Source: a virus
Taxonomy: Duplodnaviria > Heunggongvirae > Uroviricota > Caudoviricetes
Length of the DNA: 43,639 nucleotides
IMG/VR virus record: IMGVR_UViG_2617270952_000006
Reading direction: 5' to 3' (one strand)
Shown here: piece by piece, positions 1,946 through 42,829 of the stretch
Layout of the letters: each line of letters begins with the position of its first letter
How positions within the stretch are numbered: position 1 is the stretch's first letter
Made by a program: the position numbers and the translations under genes
The notes under the pieces: model-generated
Told to the model about the DNA's origin: nothing
Database searches by the model: none
Seen by the model: the letters and a program-made list of their open reading frames with translations, nothing else

Positions 1946-2878
1946 ATGGACAACGACAAAATTGATCAACACAGCGACGAAATTGAAGTTGAGAGCGAAG
2001 AAAAAGAGCGCGGCAAAAAAATAGAAATAGATGAAGACCGACTCCCCTCCCGGGCGATGGCAATTCATGAGCATATCCGCCAGGATGGTGAAAAAGAGCT
2101 GGAACGCGACGCAATGGCGCTACTGTGGTCAGCCATTGCGGCGGGGCTGTCGATGGGCGCTTCGTTACTGGCAAAAGGGATATTTCAAGTCGAACTGGAA
2201 GGTGTGCCGGGCAGCTTCTTGCTGGAGAATCTCGGTTATACCTTTGGTTTTATTATCGTCATTATGGCCCGCCAGCAATTATTTACCGAAAATACCGTGA
2301 CTGCGGTACTACCCGTCATGCAAAAACCGACAATGAGCAACGTCGGCTTACTTATACGGTTATGGGGCGTCGTGCTGCTGGGTAATATTCTCGGGACAGG
2401 TATTGCGGCGTGGGCATTTGAATATATGCCTATCTTCAATGAAGAAACTCGCGATGCATTTGTCAAAATCGGCATGGATGTGATGAAGAACACCCCCAGC
2501 GAGATGTTTGCCAACGCGATCATTTCCGGCTGGCTGATCGCCACTATGGTTTGGATGTTTCCTGCAGCGGGTGCGGCAAAGATTGTGGTGATTATATTGA
2601 TGACCTGGCTTATTGCCCTGGGTGACACCACCCATATCGTGGTCGGTTCTGTTGAAATCCTCTATCTGGTGTTTAACGGTACGCTGCACTGGAGCGATTT
2701 CATCTGGCCCTTCGCACTACCTACTTTAGCGGGGAACATCTGCGGCGGCACCTTTATCTTCGCGTTAATGAGTCATGCACAGATTCGTAACGACATGAGC
2801 AATAAGCGTAAAGCAGAAGCACGCCAAAAAGCAGAACGTGCGGAAAACATTAAGAAAAATTATAAAAACCCGGCATAA
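1946..2878 (+). CDS. yfdC: Formate/nitrite transporter family inner membrane protein YfdC
   Basis: 310-aa polytopic membrane protein; sequence and position between mlaA and argW match E. coli yfdC. Confidence 0.85.
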   Translation: MDNDKIDQHSDEIEVESEEKERGKKIEIDEDRLPSRAMAIHEHIRQDGEKELERDAMALLWSAIAAGLSMGASLLAKGIFQVELEGVPGSFLLENLGYTFGFIIVIMARQQLFTENTVTAVLPVMQKPTMSNVGLLIRLWGVVLLGNILGTGIAAWAFEYMPIFNEETRDAFVKIGMDVMKNTPSEMFANAIISGWLIATMVWMFPAAGAAKIVVIILMTWLIALGDTTHIVVGSVEILYLVFNGTLHWSDFIWPFALPTLAGNICGGTFIFALMSHAQIRNDMSNKRKAEARQKAERAENIKKNYKNPA

Positions 2879-2953
2879 ATGGCGAGGGTTTAAGCAATCG
2901 AGCGGCAGCGTACTTACCCCGCACTCCATTAGCGGGTATACTCATGCCGCATT

Positions 2954-3028
2954 GTCCTCTTAGTTAAATGGATATAACGAGCCCCTCCTAAGGGCTAATT
3001 GCAGGTTCGATTCCTGCAGGGGACACCA
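2954..3028 (+). tRNA. argW: tRNA-Arg (anticodon CCU)
   Basis: 75-nt sequence gtcctcttagttaaatggatataacgagcccctcctaagggctaattgcaggttcgattcctgcaggggacacca with anticodon loop ctCCTaa and 3' terminal CCA-like end; known integration site for Sf6/CUS-3/KplE1-type prophages. Confidence 0.9.
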
Positions 3029-3189
3029 TTTATCAGTTCGCTCCCATCCGTACCAGTCCGCAAAATCCCCTGAATATCAAGCCTTCCGTAGATTCACAGT
3101 TCGTAATGGTTCGCGTCAGATCGTTGACAGCCGCACTCCATGACGGGTAAAAAGTGGATAAAATAATTTTACCCACCGGATTTTTACCC

Positions 3190-4347
3190 ATGCTCACCGT
3201 TAAGCAGATTGAAGCAGCAAAGCCGAAAGAAAAACCATACCGCCTACTCGATGGTAATGGCCTGTACCTTTATGTCCCTGTGTCAGGGAAAAAGGTATGG
3301 CAGCTTCGCTACAAGATTGACGGTAAGGAGAAAATCCTGACCGTAGGAAAATATCCGCTAATGACTTTGCAGGAGGCAAGAGATAAAGCATGGACCGCGA
3401 GGAAAGACATCTCGGTTGGCATCGATCCGGTAAAAGCGAAAAAGGCTTCGTCTAACAACAATTCCTTTAGTGCAATTTACAAGGAATGGTACGAACACAA
3501 GAAGCAAGTCTGGTCAGTAGGGTATGCGACTGAACTTGCAAAAATGTTTGATGACGACATTTTACCCATCATCGGCGGTCTTGAGATTCAGGATATTGAG
3601 CCGATGCAACTGCTGGAAGTAATCCGCAGATTTGAAGATCGCGGTGCAATGGAGCGAGCCAACAAAGCCCGCAGAAGATGCGGCGAGGTTTTCCGTTACG
3701 CTATTGTCACTGGTAGGGCTAAATATAACCCGGCACCTGACCTTGCAGACGCCATGAAAGGATACCGCAAGAAGAACTTCCCGTTTCTTCCTGCAGACCA
3801 GATCCCTGCATTCAACAAAGCACTGGCAACATTTTCAGGAAGCATCGTATCGCTCATTGCGACCAAAGTTTTACGCTACACAGCCCTAAGAACGAAAGAG
3901 CTTCGTTCCATGCAATGGAAGAACGTCGATTTTGAAAACAGGATTATCACTATCGACGCCAGTGTGATGAAGGGCCGCAAGATTCATGTTGTTCCTATGT
4001 CAGACCAGGTGGTTGAACTTCTCACTACGCTAAGCTCCATCACTAAACCAGTATCAGAGTTTGTTTTTGCCGGGCGCAACGATAAGAAGAAGCCAATCTG
4101 CGAGAACGCGGTATTGCTTGTTATCAAACAAATCGGCTATGAGGGTCTGGAAAGCGGTCACGGATTCAGGCATGAATTCAGCACAATTATGAACGAGCAC
4201 GAATGGCCTGCTGACGCTATTGAAGTGCAACTGGCACATGCCAACGGCGGATCTGTGCGTGGAATTTACAACCATGCTCAGTATCTCGATAAGCGCAGAG
4301 AAATGATGCAGTGGTGGGCGGACTGGCTTGATGAAAAGGGGGAGTGA
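3190..4347 (+). CDS. intS: Tyrosine integrase, P4 family (IntS-like)
   Basis: 385-aa product from ATG 3190 (ORF track extends to 3154 from GTG); N-terminal arm-binding domain and C-terminal catalytic region (..HGFRHEF..LAHANG..RGIYNHAQY); immediately downstream of argW as in E. coli K-12 KplE1/CPS-53. Confidence 0.9.
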   Translation: MLTVKQIEAAKPKEKPYRLLDGNGLYLYVPVSGKKVWQLRYKIDGKEKILTVGKYPLMTLQEARDKAWTARKDISVGIDPVKAKKASSNNNSFSAIYKEWYEHKKQVWSVGYATELAKMFDDDILPIIGGLEIQDIEPMQLLEVIRRFEDRGAMERANKARRRCGEVFRYAIVTGRAKYNPAPDLADAMKGYRKKNFPFLPADQIPAFNKALATFSGSIVSLIATKVLRYTALRTKELRSMQWKNVDFENRIITIDASVMKGRKIHVVPMSDQVVELLTTLSSITKPVSEFVFAGRNDKKKPICENAVLLVIKQIGYEGLESGHGFRHEFSTIMNEHEWPADAIEVQLAHANGGSVRGIYNHAQYLDKRREMMQWWADWLDEKGE

Positions 4348-4438
4348 CCAACCTTAACCACTATCGGATAGTACAAAGCTTTGCAATCCAGACAAGGCTT
4401 TGTTTTGTCTAAGTTTGGTCACATTAGATGTGAAATCT

Positions 4439-6451
4439 TCAAATCAGCCCATAAATAACATTATGCAAATGAAGAGAGCCTGCTTCACCGGAAACATCAA
4501 AATCAATCCTAACTTTGCTTGCTCCAGGAGGAACAATATCTATTAATGCGTAGAAATTCCATGTGGAGCCTGATGGAATTGTAAATGTTGCTTTTCCCTG
4601 AACAGAGTTCCCTTCTTTATCAAAAAACTCAATACCAGAGATTGTTGTCACTTGATTCTTAGCCCAAAAACCTAACTGGAAATATCGTCCTGGTGAGCAG
4701 TCTGAGCACTCCTGATAAAATTTTGCAGATGCTCCTATAGATGGTATTGCTACATACAAAGACCTGGAAAACATAATATCATTTGGAACATCAGAATCCG
4801 TTCCTGCTGTAACAACACCTGAACCAGTTTGTTGAAGGCTCCAGTTAGAGTAGTTTAAAAACTGTCCACTTCCATTTGATAGCGAATTTATGTATGGACT
4901 AACTATGTTCCCTTTATCCCACTGAGTTGTTATAAATCCAGATCGTGGATAGCATCCATATGACATTATTTTTTTACTATTACCTCCAACTACCTGTCTA
5001 GTTGCTGATCCTGTCGCCAAATCCATTTGGTCAAATAAAGGCAATGAGCAATTTGTTAATGAAAGTACTGAATCATCATTTACAACAAACGGAACTGAAC
5101 TATATCCAGAGGGAGTAAGTAGCGTTGTATCTTTAATGCTTATTCTTGTGCTTCCAGATGCAGAGAACGCCACAAAGCTTTGACCTGGCTGAAACTCAAT
5201 ATTTCCACTTGAGTAAACAACGGTTGCGTTATCTTCAATAAAAACAGTAGAATCAAAATAACCTTCTTTCTTACCTGCTGGCATAGAGCAACAGTTAAAA
5301 ATAAATTGACCATTTCTAATTGTCAATGGACCTCCATTATCAACAACCCAACAATTATTAAATGTCATTACCTCGCCTGAGTTTGATGGAGAATTAAATA
5401 TAATTGTGTTGTTTAGACATCTTGATATTGTTACTTTGTCAAATAAAATTCTATATGAATTATCAAGAAACTCAATTCCAGCAGATGATATGAATGAAGA
5501 ATTACTTATTCTTAACTCTGATAATTCACCAGTGCCAATACCTCCAAGTAAAATCTTTTTAGATCCTAGCATCTTAAAAGATATGCCATCTAAAATTGAT
5601 GTTGCATTTATTTCATCCCTATTATCATAAGAAATATTAGAGTTACTTAACCTAATTGCATAATCACCTGATATCCCATTAATCTCAGTTAAAACGCATT
5701 TATTCGATCCTCTTAACCCACCTTTCGCGAAATCAATATCAATTAAAGACGAGAATTCTCCACTACATGGAACAACGCAATCATAACCTAGAGAGTTTAT
5801 TTTATTAATAAATAATGCAATATCCCCAGCGCCGCTGTAACCAGCGTCATATACAGAAAACTCAAGGCTTGGGTTTATTCTCTTCCAATTTACACCGTTA
5901 CCTTCTAAAACCATTACGTTATCAACTGCAATTGACTTGTCTACAGCTACAACAAACCCACCACCAAGTTCGAGTCCGGATACGTATGATTTTAAATATA
6001 ATTTATCAGATATCGACATTCCTTGTATATCTTTAAGGGAGTTAGCGCTCTCTACCATTCCAATGTATTTGTATCCAATATTACTTGATAGTTTTATAGA
6101 TAACTGATCAGGATCATACTTCAGCACATTAGGAAAATAGAACTGCTGCGCACCGTACGCATCATAAACAGCCATAGAATGGCCTTGCACGGTTACGAAT
6201 TTGGCAATCTGTCCGTTATATACCGGGTAACCAGCAGCGTTAATGATGATTGGTTGCGATACAGGAACGTGAGAACCGTCTTCGTTCTCTACATAAACCT
6301 GAATCTGGTTTTCAGGATTTACCGGGTCAGTGTCAATTTTTCCGATATAAATTTTGCCATTGGCATTTGCTTTAAACGAGCGAGCTAAAGTAAATAACTG
6401 ACTTGGTTGTGAAACAACAACGTTGTATAATTGTTCTGGCATAATAAACAT
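4439..6451 (-). CDS. Tailspike protein: P22 gp9-like N-terminal head-binding domain fused to a distinct beta-helix receptor-binding/depolymerase domain
   Basis: N-terminal ~110 aa align with P22 tailspike (..NVVVS.P...F...[34 protein letters not shown]....P.IINAAG...YNGQ......VQGHSMA.YDA.G.Q......NVLKYDPDQ); remainder is N/S/G-rich repeat-like sequence typical of parallel beta-helix; visibly A+T-rich. Confidence 0.85.
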
Positions 6452-6464
6452 TCCGGAGAAAATA

Positions 6465-6965
6465 ATGAGTAAGAGACGTCACGAGGTAGTAACTCGGGAG
6501 CGCCTTATGGAGGTTCTCGATTACAATAAAGAAACAGGAATTTTCACTTGGAAAAAGAAATTAAGCGCCAGAGGTGCTGTTGGGAAAGTTGCTGGCACAA
6601 TTTCTTATGGATATAACGCAATTAATATTGATGGCGTAAGATATTTTGCACATAGACTTGCCTGGCTGTATGTATATGGCGAATGGCCCAAACAAGAGAT
6701 TGACCACATTGATAGAAACAGAAGAAATAACGCAATCTCAAACCTTAGGGATGTCAGCAGAGTCGTAAATGCATTAAATGTCGGACCTCGAAATAGCAAT
6801 GCTGGAATCAAGGGGGTAACTTTCTGTCAAGCCAGAAATCAATGGCAAGCTCAGATAAATGTCTCAGGTAAAAACATAACCCTTGGGAGATTCAACACCA
6901 TTGATGAAGCGGCTATAGCTTATAAGGCAGCAAACATGGTTGCTGACCATCTGTTGAGTAGGTAA
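6465..6965 (+). CDS. HNH endonuclease with C-terminal AP2-like DNA-binding domain (free-standing homing-endonuclease type)
   Basis: Motifs ..[17 protein letters not shown].. (HNH) and ..[40 protein letters not shown].. (AP2-like); ATG 6465 preceded by GGAG RBS; A+T-rich; opposite strand to flanking late genes. Confidence 0.7.
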
Positions 6966-7032
6966 TGTCTGTCATTTAATTTGCTCCAGATGCAAGGAAT
7001 CGCCGCAGCATGGCTACGGTGAATTTTGGGCA

Positions 7033-7056
7033 TAAAAAAACCCAGCCGAAGCTGGG
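7033..7056 (-). terminator. Rho-independent terminator downstream of ant
   Basis: Hairpin cccagc-cgaa-gctggg with a 7-nt T-run on the minus strand immediately 3' of it. Confidence 0.5.
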
Positions 7057-7075
7057 TCGTTGCGTTGGTTATCTG

Positions 7076-8011
7076 TCAGTAGTTATGTACTGAAGGAGGT
7101 AATTCTTTATTCTTAAGTCTCATCCATGCGGAAAGATTCGTTGGTCCGTCTGGCTCATTAATATCAACATCTCGTGTGCGATTGATTAAAACGTCTCTCG
7201 CCATTCCGATAACATACGAGAACTCATGACCGTAGTCGTAGCATCTGCCTGAATAGTTCGATTGAATTTGTTTTAGCGCCGGATACAGTTCGCGGAATAA
7301 TGCCTGTGAGCGGTTGGCATAATCCCATAACCATACAAGGCTGTTTACTTCTTTTGCAGAAAGCTCGTTGGTTTTCTTCTCTTGTTTGCCAATGAACTCA
7401 CCTTCAAGTGGAACTCGAGCTGCAAGTGATAGTGCTTCGGTAAACTGCTCCTCACTGATTTCTTTGTATGAACATCCAAAATGGGATTTCAGTGACGACC
7501 ACATGGTGATCATCGCCTTAGCCTGTTTTTCCTTTGGCAGAGACTGACCGCGACTCATGACGAGTTGTTTAATGGCTTCCTGCTGTTCAGTGGTGATTTT
7601 ACCCGGCAACGCCTTTTTAGCTTTGCGCGGGTTAACTACATGGCCTTTAGTCCAGTAGTCATGCAGCACGCTAAAGCATTCCTCCTGGTACTGAATCAGT
7701 TTATCGCGGATGTCAGCACGAACTTTCTCAGGGTTGATGCTGAACAGCCATCCATTTAACTTCTTCAAAGGAAGGCAGAGTAGCTTACGAAGCTTTCCAT
7801 CAGCAGCAACCATATTCATATGAATACATTTGAACTTATCTAGTTGTTTCATAAGTTTTTGTTGCTGAGTACCCCAGCTCATTCCGAGGTTTTCAACGAT
7901 TGGCTTCATCGCAACATATGCAACTCCGGCAGCCATGGCGGTGATAATTTGCTGACCGTTGAATGGTACGTAAGAGGTGTTCACTGCTTCTAAAATTGCT
8001 ATACTATTCAT
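7076..8011 (-). CDS. ant: Antirepressor Ant (P22 immI-type)
   Basis: Large ORF immediately downstream of arc on the same strand; start taken at ATG 8011 ([17 protein letters not shown]..); ORF track extends to a GTG at 8077 that overlaps the upstream ORF. Confidence 0.7.
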
Positions 8012-8073
8012 GTTGGTTTTTCTCCACGGATTTACTGACAACCGAAGCCCTGACTGTTCCCGCAGTTGGGGCT

Positions 8074-8256
8074 TCACTGTTTTATGTTCACATCTAACAT
8101 TGTTTTTCTAGAATTTAACTCTTTCCCCATCGCTTCAACGCAAAGAGATACACAACTACTACAGATAAATATCTCTGCTTTAGCGCGAATCAACATTGCA
8201 CATTCATGCTGAGGCTTTCCGCAGAAGGAGCACTTAAAGCCATCTTCTTTATTCAT
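8074..8256 (-). CDS. 60-aa protein with ClpX-type C4 zinc-ribbon (ZBD-like) motif
   Basis: [43 protein letters not shown].. parallels the ClpX N-terminal zinc-binding domain (CSFCGK.QHE..LI......IC..CV.LC); start ATG overlaps arc stop (ATGA); preceded by GGGGGTGG RBS. Confidence 0.6.
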
Positions 8257-8405
8257 ATCGCCACCCCCTCTTTCTTCAGGCTGTCTATCAGGCGCTTGAT
8301 AACCTCTGAGTTAAACGACCTGCACTCTTCCTTTGCCCTGCTACCGATAGCATCCTTTAACGACTGCGGCATCCTTACCAAAATCTTACTTATTTCTTTC
8401 TCCAT
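8253..8405 (-). CDS. arc: Arc-like ribbon-helix-helix repressor
   Basis: 50-aa product [50 protein letters not shown]; RHH signature (..RSFNSE..) as in P22 Arc; GGAGGG RBS upstream of ATG 8405. Confidence 0.7.
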   Translation of the reverse strand: MEKEISKILVRMPQSLKDAIGSRAKEECRSFNSEVIKRLIDSLKKEGVAI

Positions 8406-8519
8406 GTTACCCTCCACACAAACAACTCTTTTCGAATACAAAAGATAGCAAAGTGAGTATATCTAGTCAAAATTTTTTTGCATACACTTTGATATCAAAT
8501 TGAATACCAAAGGTGTGTT
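8406..8519. promoter_or_regulatory. Divergent mnt/arc control region (Pant/Pmnt analog) containing a perfect 12-bp palindrome TTTGATATCAAA at 8488-8499
   Basis: Intergenic region between divergently oriented RHH repressor genes; palindrome seen directly; A+T-rich. Confidence 0.4.
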
Positions 8520-8768
8520 ATGGCAAAGGGTGTGTCAATTTCTCCAACTACGGTAAGAATCCCTGAATCTTTACGCGAGGCTCTTGCTGTTAGAGCATCA
8601 AAAAATGGTCGCTCTGTTAACTCCGAGATCGTCATGATTTTGCAAGCCGCGATTGATGAAGATAGGTCGCCAAAGTCAGTTGAGTCATTTGCTCAGCAAG
8701 AAGCTGACAAATTCAAAGAGGCGCTGCTGGAGACGCTGAAAACCATGTATGGTAAGGATGATAAATAA
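8520..8768 (+). CDS. mnt: Mnt-like ribbon-helix-helix repressor
   Basis: 82-aa product with N-terminal RHH (..RIPESLREALAVRASKNGRSVNSEIV..) and C-terminal helical region, divergent from arc as in P22 immI. Confidence 0.75.
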   Translation: MAKGVSISPTTVRIPESLREALAVRASKNGRSVNSEIVMILQAAIDEDRSPKSVESFAQQEADKFKEALLETLKTMYGKDDK

Positions 8769-9304
8769 TGCTGCACACAATTCATTTCTTATGCCCCGTT
8801 AACACCGCCACTGTTGGGCAACTTCAGAACCACTGTCTCACCGCATTATCTCAAGGCGCAACTGAATTAAATATCCATATATCAAGTCAGGGAGGGGAAA
8901 CTGCCGCTGGTTTTACTGCGTATAACTTTCTTAAGTCACTCCCTGTTACCGTTAGAACTCACAACATAAGCAATGTTGAATCCATAGCTAATATCGTTTT
9001 CCTGGCTGGCTCAGAACGTTTCGCAAACCCATTATCAAGATTCCTGTTACATCCTCTATTATGGGGCTTTGCCTCCCCAGCCGCCGACCATGCCAGACTG
9101 AGAGAGTACGGGAAATGCCTCGATAACGATCTTGATCGCTTCGTTGAGACGTTCAATATCGACATCGGAACCCATATTAGGTGGGCATCCCTGATAGCAG
9201 ACTCGACCATTTTGGATGCTAACAAGGCTCTTGAGCATGGCATAATTAATTCCATAAAAACTGCAAGGCTGGCATCCAATCAGGCAAACTGGTGGGTTGT
9301 TTGA
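8768..9304 (+). CDS. ClpP-family (peptidase S14-like) serine peptidase homolog
   Basis: By-eye alignment to E. coli ClpP: IHISSQGGETAAG vs INSPGGVITAG; NVESIANIVFLAGSERFANPLSRFLLHPL vs [31 protein letters not shown] (candidate Ser and His aligned); start ATG overlaps mnt stop (TAATG). Confidence 0.65.
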   Translation: MLHTIHFLCPVNTATVGQLQNHCLTALSQGATELNIHISSQGGETAAGFTAYNFLKSLPVTVRTHNISNVESIANIVFLAGSERFANPLSRFLLHPLLWGFASPAADHARLREYGKCLDNDLDRFVETFNIDIGTHIRWASLIADSTILDANKALEHGIINSIKTARLASNQANWWVV

Positions 9305-9360
9305 TGGGTAAATCATGATTACTCCTTATAAAAAACCCACCTGACGGTGGGGTTCATTTC

Positions 9361-9780
9361 TTAATCTTGCTTCGTGGAAGGTATAAGAGATGCATTTGCC
9401 TCTTTTGGCTTCAATGTATACATCCCACCATTAAATGGATCAACAGCAAGCCAACCAATTAACCCACCAAACACAAGGTTTCCACCAATATACCAACCAT
9501 TAGCATTGGCTTTGATTGGCAGGGTAACTGGTTCGTACCCATCCTTCTCCATAGTGATCTGGTAGCTCTTTTTGCCAAAATAGCTACCATCTGACTTGGC
9601 GAGTGTTACACCTTGTGGAGTCTTACCTTGCGCAACAATCACACCCGATTCATCTTTTACCTTAAAGCTCGCGCCAGAAGGATTGCTGTTCACTTGCACA
9701 AGTTGCGTTTCATCACCAACAATAGTTGCGCACCCAGATAACATGATAACGCCAGCAACGACGCTAATAATCCTCTTCAT
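9361..9780 (-). CDS. Lipoprotein with PEGA-like domain and C-terminal glycine-zipper hydrophobic segment
   Basis: Signal peptide with lipobox (MKRIISVVAGVIMLSGC); PEGA-like stretch (..VQVNSNPSGASFKV..GKTPQGVTL..DGYEP..); C-terminal ..WYIGGNLVFGGLIGWLAV..; A+T-rich. Confidence 0.55.
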   Translation of the reverse strand: MKRIISVVAGVIMLSGCATIVGDETQLVQVNSNPSGASFKVKDESGVIVAQGKTPQGVTLAKSDGSYFGKKSYQITMEKDGYEPVTLPIKANANGWYIGGNLVFGGLIGWLAVDPFNGGMYTLKPKEANASLIPSTKQD

Positions 9781-9897
9781 ATCAATTTCCATATTTAAAA
9801 AACCGGAAACATCCTAATGACAAAACATTCAAATGTGAAGTAGGCAAAAGATGTTTACTTTTTTCATGGTATCCTGCTCAAAACTAAGGAGGTTGGT

Positions 9898-10125
9898 GTG
9901 AAGCGATGGTTCCTCATAATTACTGTTTTCGCGATCATTTACACTATTTTCCCTGCATTAAAAGCACCAATGCAAATAATTTCACTAGCAATAATTTCGA
10001 TTGGTGCTTTCATTGCAGTAGCCGTACTTGTGTTTAAGGTTTTAAAGTTTTTAGTTTGGCTATCAAAAGATGATGGATGCAAAGTTCATCAAGAAAAAGA
10101 AGGCAAAATAACCAAAGTTGACTAA
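9898..10125 (+). CDS. Small predicted 2-TM membrane protein
   Basis: 75-aa product with two hydrophobic helices; GTG start 7 nt after AAGGAGG RBS. Confidence 0.45.
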   Translation: MKRWFLIITVFAIIYTIFPALKAPMQIISLAIISIGAFIAVAVLVFKVLKFLVWLSKDDGCKVHQEKEGKITKVD

Positions 10126-37393: not shown

Positions 37394-38362
37394 ATGAGTG
37401 AAGTAACAGATTTAGTTGTTATTGAAAAAGCAAATGCAATGACTGTATTTCAGTCTGCCGACCAGATTGAAGAAATCCTTCAAAAGGTTGAACGTGAAGT
37501 TATGTCCTTTGTGCCTGATATCACAACGGCAAAGGGCAGAAAGGAGATCGCTTCTCTGGCGTATAAAGTTGCGCAGACGAAAACATATCTCGATGGTCTT
37601 GGCAAAGACCTTGTTGCTGAACTGAAGGAAATTCCAAAGCTAATTGATGCTAACCGCAAGACAGTGCGTGATCGCCTTGATGAGCTGAAAGCCAAGGCGC
37701 GCCAGCCTCTTACTGATTATGAGGAAGAACAGGCGCGGATTAAAGCCGAAGAAGAAGCTAAGGCAGCAGCTGAAGCTCTCGCAAAGCAAATTGAGTCTGA
37801 CCATGAAATAGCTATTTTGATGGATCGCGAATTTGACCGCCAAAGAGAAGAGGCAAGACTCAAAGCGGAGCAGGAAAAGCGAGAGCATGAAGAACGATTA
37901 AAAAGAGAAGCTGAAGAGAAAGCCAGAGCAGAAGCCGAAGCAAAGGCAAAAGCCGAAATTGAAGCAGCAGCAAGGCGAGAAGCAGAAGCTAAGGCCGCAG
38001 CGGAACGTGCAGAGCGTGAACGCATTGAAGCCGAGCAACGAGCACAGCGCGAAGCAAAAGAGGCAGCAGAACGAGCTGAAAGAGAAAAGCAGGCAGCAAT
38101 TGAAGCAGAACGCAGAAAAGCACAGGAGGAGGCTGAACGAATCCGTCGCGAGGCTGAAGCAAAAGAGCAAGCCAGAATAGCAGAAGAAAAAAGAATCAAG
38201 GACGAAGAAGAGCGTAGAGCAAAGGATAAAGCTCACCGGAAAGAAGTAAATAACAAAATACTTGCTGACCTTATCAAGGTTGGCGCATCAGAAGATGTTG
38301 CTAAAAATATCATAACAGCCATCGTAAAAGGCGAAGTATTCGCAACAAAAATAACCTACTAA
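37394..38362 (+). CDS. Hypothetical 322-aa protein with N-terminal globular region and long E/A/K/R-rich coiled-coil-like low-complexity region
   Basis: Central ~150 aa are almost purely E/A/K/R (..EAEEKARAEAEAKAKAEIEAAARREAEAKAAAERAERE..), resembling TolA domain II-type helices; GGAGGA RBS. Confidence 0.65.
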   Translation: MSEVTDLVVIEKANAMTVFQSADQIEEILQKVEREVMSFVPDITTAKGRKEIASLAYKVAQTKTYLDGLGKDLVAELKEIPKLIDANRKTVRDRLDELKAKARQPLTDYEEEQARIKAEEEAKAAAEALAKQIESDHEIAILMDREFDRQREEARLKAEQEKREHEERLKREAEEKARAEAEAKAKAEIEAAARREAEAKAAAERAERERIEAEQRAQREAKEAAERAEREKQAAIEAERRKAQEEAERIRREAEAKEQARIAEEKRIKDEEERRAKDKAHRKEVNNKILADLIKVGASEDVAKNIITAIVKGEVFATKITY

Positions 38363-42028: not shown

Positions 42029-42829
42029 ATGACCATCCACTTTCACGGCAGCCCAATATGGGGTGATGAGCATGCCCCTACAGATATGCTGATTAAAGCC
42101 CTTTACCGTGATGGTGGGGCTTTTGTTTCATTTGCCAGACCAGAGCAGATGAAAAAGATTGCCATGTTCCCTTGTGATATACGCCTTGATAACGGTGCTT
42201 TTAGCGACTGGATGAAAGCATTAAAGAAAGGCACTCCGGTAGACTGGAGTAAGAGACGAGCAAAATTCTACGACTTTGTTGGGACGTGGTTCAGCAGAAT
42301 TGAATGGTTTCTTATACCTGACGTTATCGAAGGGACAGAGGCAGAAAACGACGAGCAGATTGAGTTGGTTCCTGATTGGCTAAAATCAAAAGCGGTTCCG
42401 GTCTGGCATACCGACGAATCAATTGAACGTCTTTTACGCCTTTCTGGCAAATTTGAATGGGTGGCGATTGGATGCTGCGGCCCACACAGGCACATACGCT
42501 CTAAATGGTGGGAACAGAGAATGGATGAAGTTTTTACTGAGATTTATATCAATCGTAATTTGAAAGTGAAAATTCATGGTCTTCGAATGCTCGACGTGAG
42601 AGTTCTTGGTATGTATCCGTTCGCCAGTGCGGATTCTACTAATGTTGCTGTTAACGTACCGAAGACAGAGAAGCGATTTCCTGAGATTACCGACAAACTG
42701 GCACGTACAGCTGTACTTCGCGCAGCTATTGAAAAGGTGCACCCACCATCGATATCAGCATGGGTAGACAGAAAGAGGAGAGAGCCGGCGCAAGCCGGTT
42801 TTTTATTTGAATTCACCGACGCCGCTTAA
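42029..42829 (+). CDS. Hypothetical 266-aa protein (moron-like cassette)
   Basis: Stand-alone ORF bounded on both sides by hairpin/T-tract elements; no motif confidently recognised. Confidence 0.6.
   Translation: MTIHFHGSPIWGDEHAPTDMLIKALYRDGGAFVSFARPEQMKKIAMFPCDIRLDNGAFSDWMKALKKGTPVDWSKRRAKFYDFVGTWFSRIEWFLIPDVIEGTEAENDEQIELVPDWLKSKAVPVWHTDESIERLLRLSGKFEWVAIGCCGPHRHIRSKWWEQRMDEVFTEIYINRNLKVKIHGLRMLDVRVLGMYPFASADSTNVAVNVPKTEKRFPEITDKLARTAVLRAAIEKVHPPSISAWVDRKRREPAQAGFLFEFTDAA

Follow-up and report, generated by a model that had tools for sequence, protein, structure and literature searches.

Tailspike modularity is textbook knowledge for P22-like phages, and the gene described here is a further case of it. 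It lies on the minus strand, within positions 4439 to 6451 of IMGVR_UViG_2617270952_000006, a stretch of 43,639 nucleotides (the window) that holds what appears to be a complete P22-like prophage (Lederbergvirus, Sf6/Kapi1-type) inserted at argW. The tailspikes of Sf6 (gp14) and P22 (gp9) have a head-binding domain like that of the window protein, and their genes likewise follow ant, closing the late region. The Sf6 prophage is also found at argW, and its int gene presumably lies beside the tailspike end of the genome. The endorhamnosidase domains of Sf6 and P22 are unrelated to the receptor domain of the window tailspike. Furthermore, gtrABC of P22 and oac of Sf6 are located between tailspike and int, whereas the window prophage has neither.

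Kapi1 (vB_EcoP_Kapi1, MT813197, Lederbergvirus) shares the argW site and the gene order ant, antisense HNH gene, tailspike, int. It likewise lacks a recognisable conversion gene at the junction of tailspike and int, where its gap contains a 34-amino-acid open reading frame (ORF). The Kapi1 tailspike (792 amino acids) has a different receptor module, with homology ending at window position 6104. In addition, O-antigen modification by Kapi1 has been shown by experiment. The receptor module of the window protein is instead homologous over its full length to the body of tailspike protein 4 (TSP4) of CBA120 (Kuttervirus, O78-specific). The N termini of these two proteins differ completely: TSP4, which fits a branched myovirus baseplate complex, begins with an anchor, gp10-like XD domains and a D1-D2 head, in place of which the window tailspike has a P22-type domain of 113 amino acids.

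An O78-subtype tailspike from a P22-like prophage has already been published, namely, that of the Lederbergvirus prophage of RHB17-C10 (CP057690.1), with a 123-amino-acid anchor (Pas et al. 2023, Virol J 20:174, PMC10408124, Table S1). It falls into the same category as the window tailspike (P22-like anchor plus O78-subtype receptor domain, assigned by TSP4 homology), and the window gene is another instance of this combination, with an Sf6/Kapi1-type anchor and an O78-subtype body. The likely reading of the locus is an ordinary modular tailspike of a P22-like argW prophage, in which a conserved head-binding domain is joined to an exchanged O78-type (CBA120 TSP4 family) receptor module with no recognisable conversion gene. 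The current view of tailspike modularity is unchanged by these findings.

Two parts of the tailspike and their boundary

The preliminary description placed the tailspike at 4348 to 6451. The ORF is real, but a start at 4348 takes in the intergenic gap, and the gene itself, which is convergent with int, occupies 4439 to 6451 on the minus strand when translated from an ATG at 6451 (670 amino acids). Gene calls on identical contigs use a second in-frame ATG at 6442, giving a protein of 667 amino acids (4439 to 6442). The exact protein match is WP_032246858.1 (Escherichia coli 3-105-05_S3_C2). The 90%-identity protein cluster of the tailspike has 152 members, and all members listed are from E. coli and carry a generic annotation.

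The sole Pfam match in the tailspike is Head_binding (PF09008) at amino acids 4 to 116 (E value of 2e-64), which covers profile positions 1 to 113 of 113. The domain corresponds to amino acids 1 to 113 of the 667-amino-acid form and to positions 6104 to 6442 (minus strand). Among PDB entries, this P22/Sf6-type virion attachment domain matches Sf6 gp14 (E value of 3e-61), the P22 head-binding domain 1LKT (8e-44) and the P22 tailspike (~1e-48), and P22 and Sf6 tailspike structures cover only about amino acids 7 to 153 of the query. At the DNA level, the domain is 98.3% identical to that of Kapi1 and 86 to 89% identical to those of other argW prophages. The protein thus has the N-terminal PF09008 domain of ~110 to 125 amino acids by which Lederbergvirus tailspikes were recognised, and its gene has the corresponding location, closing the late region downstream of immI/ant in a prophage whose DNA is extensively homologous to that of the Lederbergvirus Kapi1.

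The remainder of the protein is of different origin. A gp9-type receptor domain, defined by similarity to the beta-helix body of P22 gp9 (residues ~125 to 666), was not found, and a relationship to the P22 endorhamnosidase was rejected, as P22 chains (2XC1, 8TVR and 5GAI) align only to amino acids 9 to 153, with none beyond. These results agree with the preliminary description, in which only the N-terminal ~110 amino acids were considered P22 gp9-like and the rest was considered a different domain. A Pfam search with the C-terminal 554 amino acids alone, a domain search of the kind proposed there, found no family even at an E value of ≤0.1. It was comparison with PDB entries and phages alone that revealed the identity of the module, which belongs to the CBA120 TSP4/O78 family.

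Amino acids 116 to 670 match residues 144 to 697 of PDB entry 5W6H (CBA120 tailspike protein 4, orf213) with an E value of 3e-213, and blastp gives 58% identity to TSP4 over 545 amino acids. Four parts make up the TSP4 body, namely, a neck, the D3' module (an insertion), the catalytic beta-helix D3 and the D4 part, a large beta-sandwich (PMC7506556, PMC8825819), and homology spans all four. The rule for the O78 subtype in PMC10408124 is ≥30% identity and ≥60% coverage; the match to TSP4 far exceeds both values, and the module (4439 to 6103, minus strand) is assigned to this subtype. Identity is 64% to ep3 gp41, 56% to phiWAO78-1 gp35 and 72% to a prophage remnant in E. coli H10407. A tblastn search of 50,697 phage records found the module at 53 to 64% identity in phages for which the host on record is mostly E. 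coli O78, including vB_EcoM_ECOO78, EC1-UPM, phiWAO78-1, AVIO78A, ASO78B, phiHAO78-1 and XT18/32/73, with further copies in ep3, PhAPEC5/7 and Bp4. At least seven genera include O78 phages with a module of the TSP4-type family (tblastn; PMC10408124).

About 190 positions, many of them Asp and Glu, are invariant among five family members, and the ratio of nonsynonymous to synonymous substitution rates (dN/dS) in the module is 0.16 between the window allele and the 93%-identical allele of strain ZY22049. Both features argue for a constrained, functional protein. The 58% identity to the solved crystal structure 5W6H suggests that the module would form a trimeric beta-helix with inter-subunit catalytic sites. 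In the proposed mechanism, the N-terminal ~113 to 116 residues would plug the tailspike trimer into a P22-type tail hub, and the residues after the ...YDPDQ junction would be a horizontally exchanged cassette, homologous to the TSP4 body. As a trimeric beta-helix endoglycosidase, this cassette would bind and cleave O-antigen, allowing the virion to reach the outer membrane and setting the host range.

Comparison with related prophages locates the boundaries of the exchange. DNA homology to Kapi1 extends through int to 4333, returns at exactly 6104 and then continues at 98.3% identity through the head-binding domain and HNH gene into ant. Homology to the A2 and EC45 prophages, which have other tailspikes, breaks at 4339 and 6099, and that to PSJ-36, a gtrABC carrier, continues to 4403. 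Homology to Kapi1, A2 and EC45 therefore stops 8 to 14 nucleotides short of the int stop. The breakpoints indicate an exchangeable cassette at ~4334/4340 to 6103, comprising receptor module, spacer and terminator, and anchored on one side by the 3' end of int and on the other by the ...YDPDQ sequence that closes the head-binding domain (~codon 116). In 14 genomes, the 91-bp spacer between the two genes is conserved along with the module. Recombination at the two conserved anchors would swap in the whole cassette, spacer and terminator included. The modular replacement of the host-range determinant proposed in the preliminary description is borne out by these boundaries, and the locus provides a clean example of cassette exchange, with exact breakpoints and an int-remnant footprint in one relative.

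That relative is ZY22049, in which the gap between int and tailspike (2694 to 3091 of the compared stretch) is 398 bp rather than 91 bp and a ~60-bp remnant of the int 3' end lies directly upstream of the conserved spacer. The remnant is best read as the footprint of a cassette exchange within int. A different crossover is seen in the Jilinvirus ep3, whose gp41 aligns from amino acid 70 of the window tailspike (to 667) and so still has ~45 residues from the end of a head-binding domain of the P22 type. Retention of these residues suggests that ep3 may have taken its O78 module from a P22-like phage via a crossover inside this domain.

The module is also distinct in base composition. Its G+C content is 35.3% (23% at third codon positions), and windows of equal size elsewhere in the prophage average 47.3% (standard deviation, 2.7; minimum, 40.2%). 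Intermediate values are found for the HNH gene (41.3%) and the head-binding part (40.8%), in accordance with an earlier remark that the DNA is A+T-rich from the receptor module through the HNH gene. The G+C content of the window module (35%) is lower than that of CBA120 TSP4 (39.5%). The module falls below its flanks in every phage examined: CBA120 (39.5 versus 43%), ep3 (42 versus 49%), phiWAO78-1 (46 versus 48 to 51%) and the H10407 remnant (41 versus 54%). Low G+C content is therefore a trait of the module family.

The int/tailspike junction and lysogenic conversion

The int gene stops at 4347 and the tailspike stop codon occupies 4439 to 4441, leaving a 91-bp spacer (4348 to 4438, assigned to neither strand) between the convergent genes. 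When ORFs at the junction were listed down to 20 amino acids, none exceeded 25 amino acids, and the gap contains no gene. The preliminary statement that nothing lies in the ~90 bp between the two stop codons is thus accurate, and no small gene had been overlooked. The spacer folds into a hairpin (-29.2 kcal/mol, z = -4.17) followed by TTTTGT on the plus (int) strand, probably the int terminator.

A conversion cassette, defined as a gene for a membrane acyl- or glycosyl-transferase or a polymerase between tailspike and int, was not present. Among all prophage ORFs of ≥50 amino acids, none of ≥150 amino acids has more than two hydrophobic segments, and comparison of unassigned prophage ORFs with PHROG and Pfam found no Gtr, Oac, Wzy, acyltransferase, glycosyltransferase or other conversion family. 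A 112-amino-acid ORF with five hydrophobic segments (37898 to 38236, minus strand) was deemed spurious, being antisense to a well-supported phage gene and having no family hit.

Relatives were previously thought usually to carry a polysaccharide modification gene at this junction, making its absence telling. A survey of argW P22-like prophages with eight intact types of tailspike, from which a ninth, degraded prophage (Nord122) was left out, does not support this view. Five types (the window type, A2, AST215, 400660 and Kapi1) have no junction gene, with at most the 34-amino-acid ORF. The junction contains gtrABC in PSJ-36, a hypothetical ORF and a WzyE-like polymerase gene in EC45, and genes for a GDSL esterase and a DUF1796 protein with a hypothetical ORF in EC19. 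A junction free of conversion genes is therefore not unusual but a common state in argW P22-like prophages, and int and tailspike are natural neighbours in the argW-integrated Sf6/Kapi1-type group.

Nor does an empty junction indicate that the conversion function is absent, one of the two outcomes proposed earlier. Kapi1 lysogens, with the same gene-less junction, have an altered O-antigen, and none of the tested candidate genes accounts for the change (PMC8787464); absence of a recognisable gene does not, therefore, establish absence of conversion. By analogy, the window prophage could encode conversion through unrecognised genes elsewhere, the gene-less junction being misleading, although this is unlikely. 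Kapi1 shares with it not only argW and the junction but also the 98.3%-identical head-binding/HNH/ant block and large early and late regions, and the immI region holds morons of unassigned function, namely, the phrog_6823 ORF, the phrog_7294 ORF (75 amino acids, three transmembrane segments) and a ClpP-like gene. However, the receptor module, and hence the O-antigen concerned, differs from that of Kapi1, much of the genome is unshared, and the prophage scans found no acyltransferase, Gtr, Wzy or glycosyltransferase family. It is very unlikely that the prophage alters or masks the host O-antigen through an unrecognised gene set, with gene-less junctions marking a second route of seroconversion or superinfection protection. 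If so, mismatches between O78-type tailspikes and host O-antigens might reflect more than passive O-antigen switching.

Receptor specificity and host serogroup

Cleavage of the E. coli O78 O-antigen by TSP4 is reported in PMC8825819 and PMC10408124, the latter citing Plattner et al. 2019, and according to a review Plattner et al. deduced this target from the tailspikes of prophages whose hosts had been typed (PMC6966330). Tailspike receptor subtypes retain serogroup specificity to about 30% identity (Pas et al. 2023, PMC10408124). The window module is predicted to bind and cleave O-antigen, and its target is most probably E. coli O78.

The host serogroup of carriers was compared with this prediction by using the wzx-wzy segment from avian-pathogenic E. 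coli (APEC) ACN001 as an O78 marker, which was found in 40 of 5426 complete E. coli genomes. In 14 complete genomes this tailspike adjoins intS in the same way; the module is 99.5 to 99.7% identical in 13 and 93% identical in ZY22049, and five of the genomes are O78 (ACN001, H3, TW14425, VTB97022v and ZY22049). Four genomes with homologues of 70 to 80% nucleotide identity in other prophages are all O78, namely, H10407 (enterotoxigenic E. coli [ETEC]), SEC470, E7 and APEC17. The marker is therefore present in 9/18 genomes with any homologue of the module. The hypergeometric P values are 3e-8 (5/14) and 1e-15 (9/18), and enrichment is ~50-fold over background. The copy in H10407 (O78:H11; 3997 to 5451 of the compared stretch) is truncated to 484 amino acids, is 72% identical and adjoins an IS66-family element and phage lysis genes; it appears to be a remnant in a different, degraded prophage.

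Several points weigh against O78 as the target. Nine of the 14 carriers lack the O78 cluster, and all nine have the 99.5 to 99.7%-identical module. Those typed are O145 (NC22), O35 (XB2) and O100 with an O154 remnant (isolateD and Survcare253). The other five, which were shown only to be without the O78 cluster, are suspected to belong to the isolateD/Survcare253 (O100/O154) lineage. Identity to the characterised TSP4 is only 58%, so that specificity could have drifted. The serogroup association was assessed in carriers with complete genomes; the window itself comes from E. coli 3-105-05_S3_C2 (GCA_000700205.1).

The variety of carrier serogroups and the modest identity to TSP4 could mean that the fold has been kept while the target is no longer, or not only, O78 but another O-antigen or a shared glycan. 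This is quite unlikely in view of the enrichment for O78 hosts, the occurrence of every divergent homologue in E. coli chromosomes in an O78 strain and the origin of phage homologues from O78 phages. The retention of serogroup specificity by receptor subtypes at far lower identity also counts against it. Furthermore, the non-O78 carriers collapse to about three lineages, one of which provides an explanation for its serogroup. Strains XB2 (O35) and ACN001 (O78) have no mismatches over 4.5 kb (sbcB to plaP), followed by 13 to 60 mismatches per kb through his-rfb. This pattern points to recombination that switched the O-antigen inside a single clone, which for XB2 would have occurred after or around lysogeny. 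The mismatch between host and module thus seems at least partly explained by O-antigen switching, with O78 specificity retained.

These results nevertheless advise caution in predicting serogroup from prophage tailspikes, as the O-antigen cluster is not that of O78 in 9 of the 14 carriers with complete genomes, and in at least one of them a within-clone switch is the probable cause. Assignment to the O78 receptor subtype could be applied to the 152-member protein cluster, currently labelled "phage head-binding domain-containing protein," for annotation and host-range prediction, and might be of use in designing serogroup-targeted phages or tailocins against avian-pathogenic and enterotoxigenic O78 strains.

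It is extremely improbable that the tailspike is a decaying relic with no current function in a defective prophage, since, although the P22-type tailspike copy of VTB97022v is interrupted by IS2 and H10407 has only the truncated homologue beside the IS66-family element, the window ORF is intact, the module has the low dN/dS given above, and the prophage retains int, immI, ejection protein, tail, head, terminase, lysis, Q, replication, repressor, recombination and xis modules.

Neighbouring genes and prophage layout

The left end of the prophage is its attachment site, argW, encoding tRNA-Arg (CCU) (2954 to 3028, plus strand; ARAGORN). It is followed by the gene for an IntS-type tyrosine integrase (3190 to 4347, plus strand; Pfam Arm-DNA-bind_3, Phage_int_M and Phage_integrase). 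Annotations of relatives name this gene intS. The longest int ORF begins at 3154; gene callers give a 385-amino-acid form, from whose length the start at 3190 was deduced. The order yfdC-argW-intS is common to all relatives examined. Window bases 2801 to 9000 (6.2 kb compared) are 100% identical to contig JNMB01000022.1 of GCA_000700205.1. An IS1 transposase gene (81 to 584; Pfam) lies at the left edge of the window, followed by mlaA, yfdC and argW. This IS1 occupies the place that yfdF has upstream of mlaA in other E. coli genomes, and identical contigs stop at it.

Between tailspike and ant, in antisense orientation and 22 bp from the tailspike start codon, is a homing-endonuclease-like gene with HNH_3 and AP2 domains (6465 to 6965, plus strand; Pfam HNH_3, E value of 2.5e-16; phrog_99, 7e-63). 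Its product is 100% identical in amino acid sequence to Kapi1_066. The gene is absent from the 14 module-sharing genomes, none of which aligns beyond 6394, and the 573 bp at 6395 to 6967 correspond to 43 bp in NC22 and ACN001, the two genomes compared. This stretch includes the first 19 tailspike codons, which consequently co-vary with the insertion, as would be expected from homing with co-conversion.

The gene for the P22-type antirepressor Ant of the immI region (7076 to 8077, minus strand; Pfam P22_AR_N and P22_AR_C) precedes the tailspike in the direction of late transcription. Genes near the tailspike encode Ant, Arc, ejection proteins of the P22 gp7, gp20 and gp16 types, a tail needle knob and a gp10-like Phage_stabilise protein. 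Beyond ant, P22-like virion, lysis, replication, immunity and recombination genes continue up to a homologue of the excisionase gene (Kapi1 xis) at the window end. A promoter and terminator scan of 4200 to 7200 gave no more sites than shuffled sequence; a terminator-like site is located by ant at 7058 to 7039 on the minus strand.

Accessory genes of the immI region at 8520 to 10125, as called on identical contigs, encode an Arc-like repressor, a ClpP-like protease (8768 to 9304) and a zf-C4_ClpX-like ORF. The phrog_6823 ORF (9361 to 9792) has one hydrophobic segment, and the phrog_7294 ORF (9898 to 10125) has three in its 75 amino acids. These genes are candidate exclusion or moron genes because they are placed where P22 carries sieA. 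In the early-left region, an ORF of 266 amino acids (42029 to 42829, plus strand) has no Pfam hit but matches phrog_887, "queuine tRNA-ribosyltransferase" (E value of 5e-102), and may be a Tgt/DpdA-like DNA modification moron.

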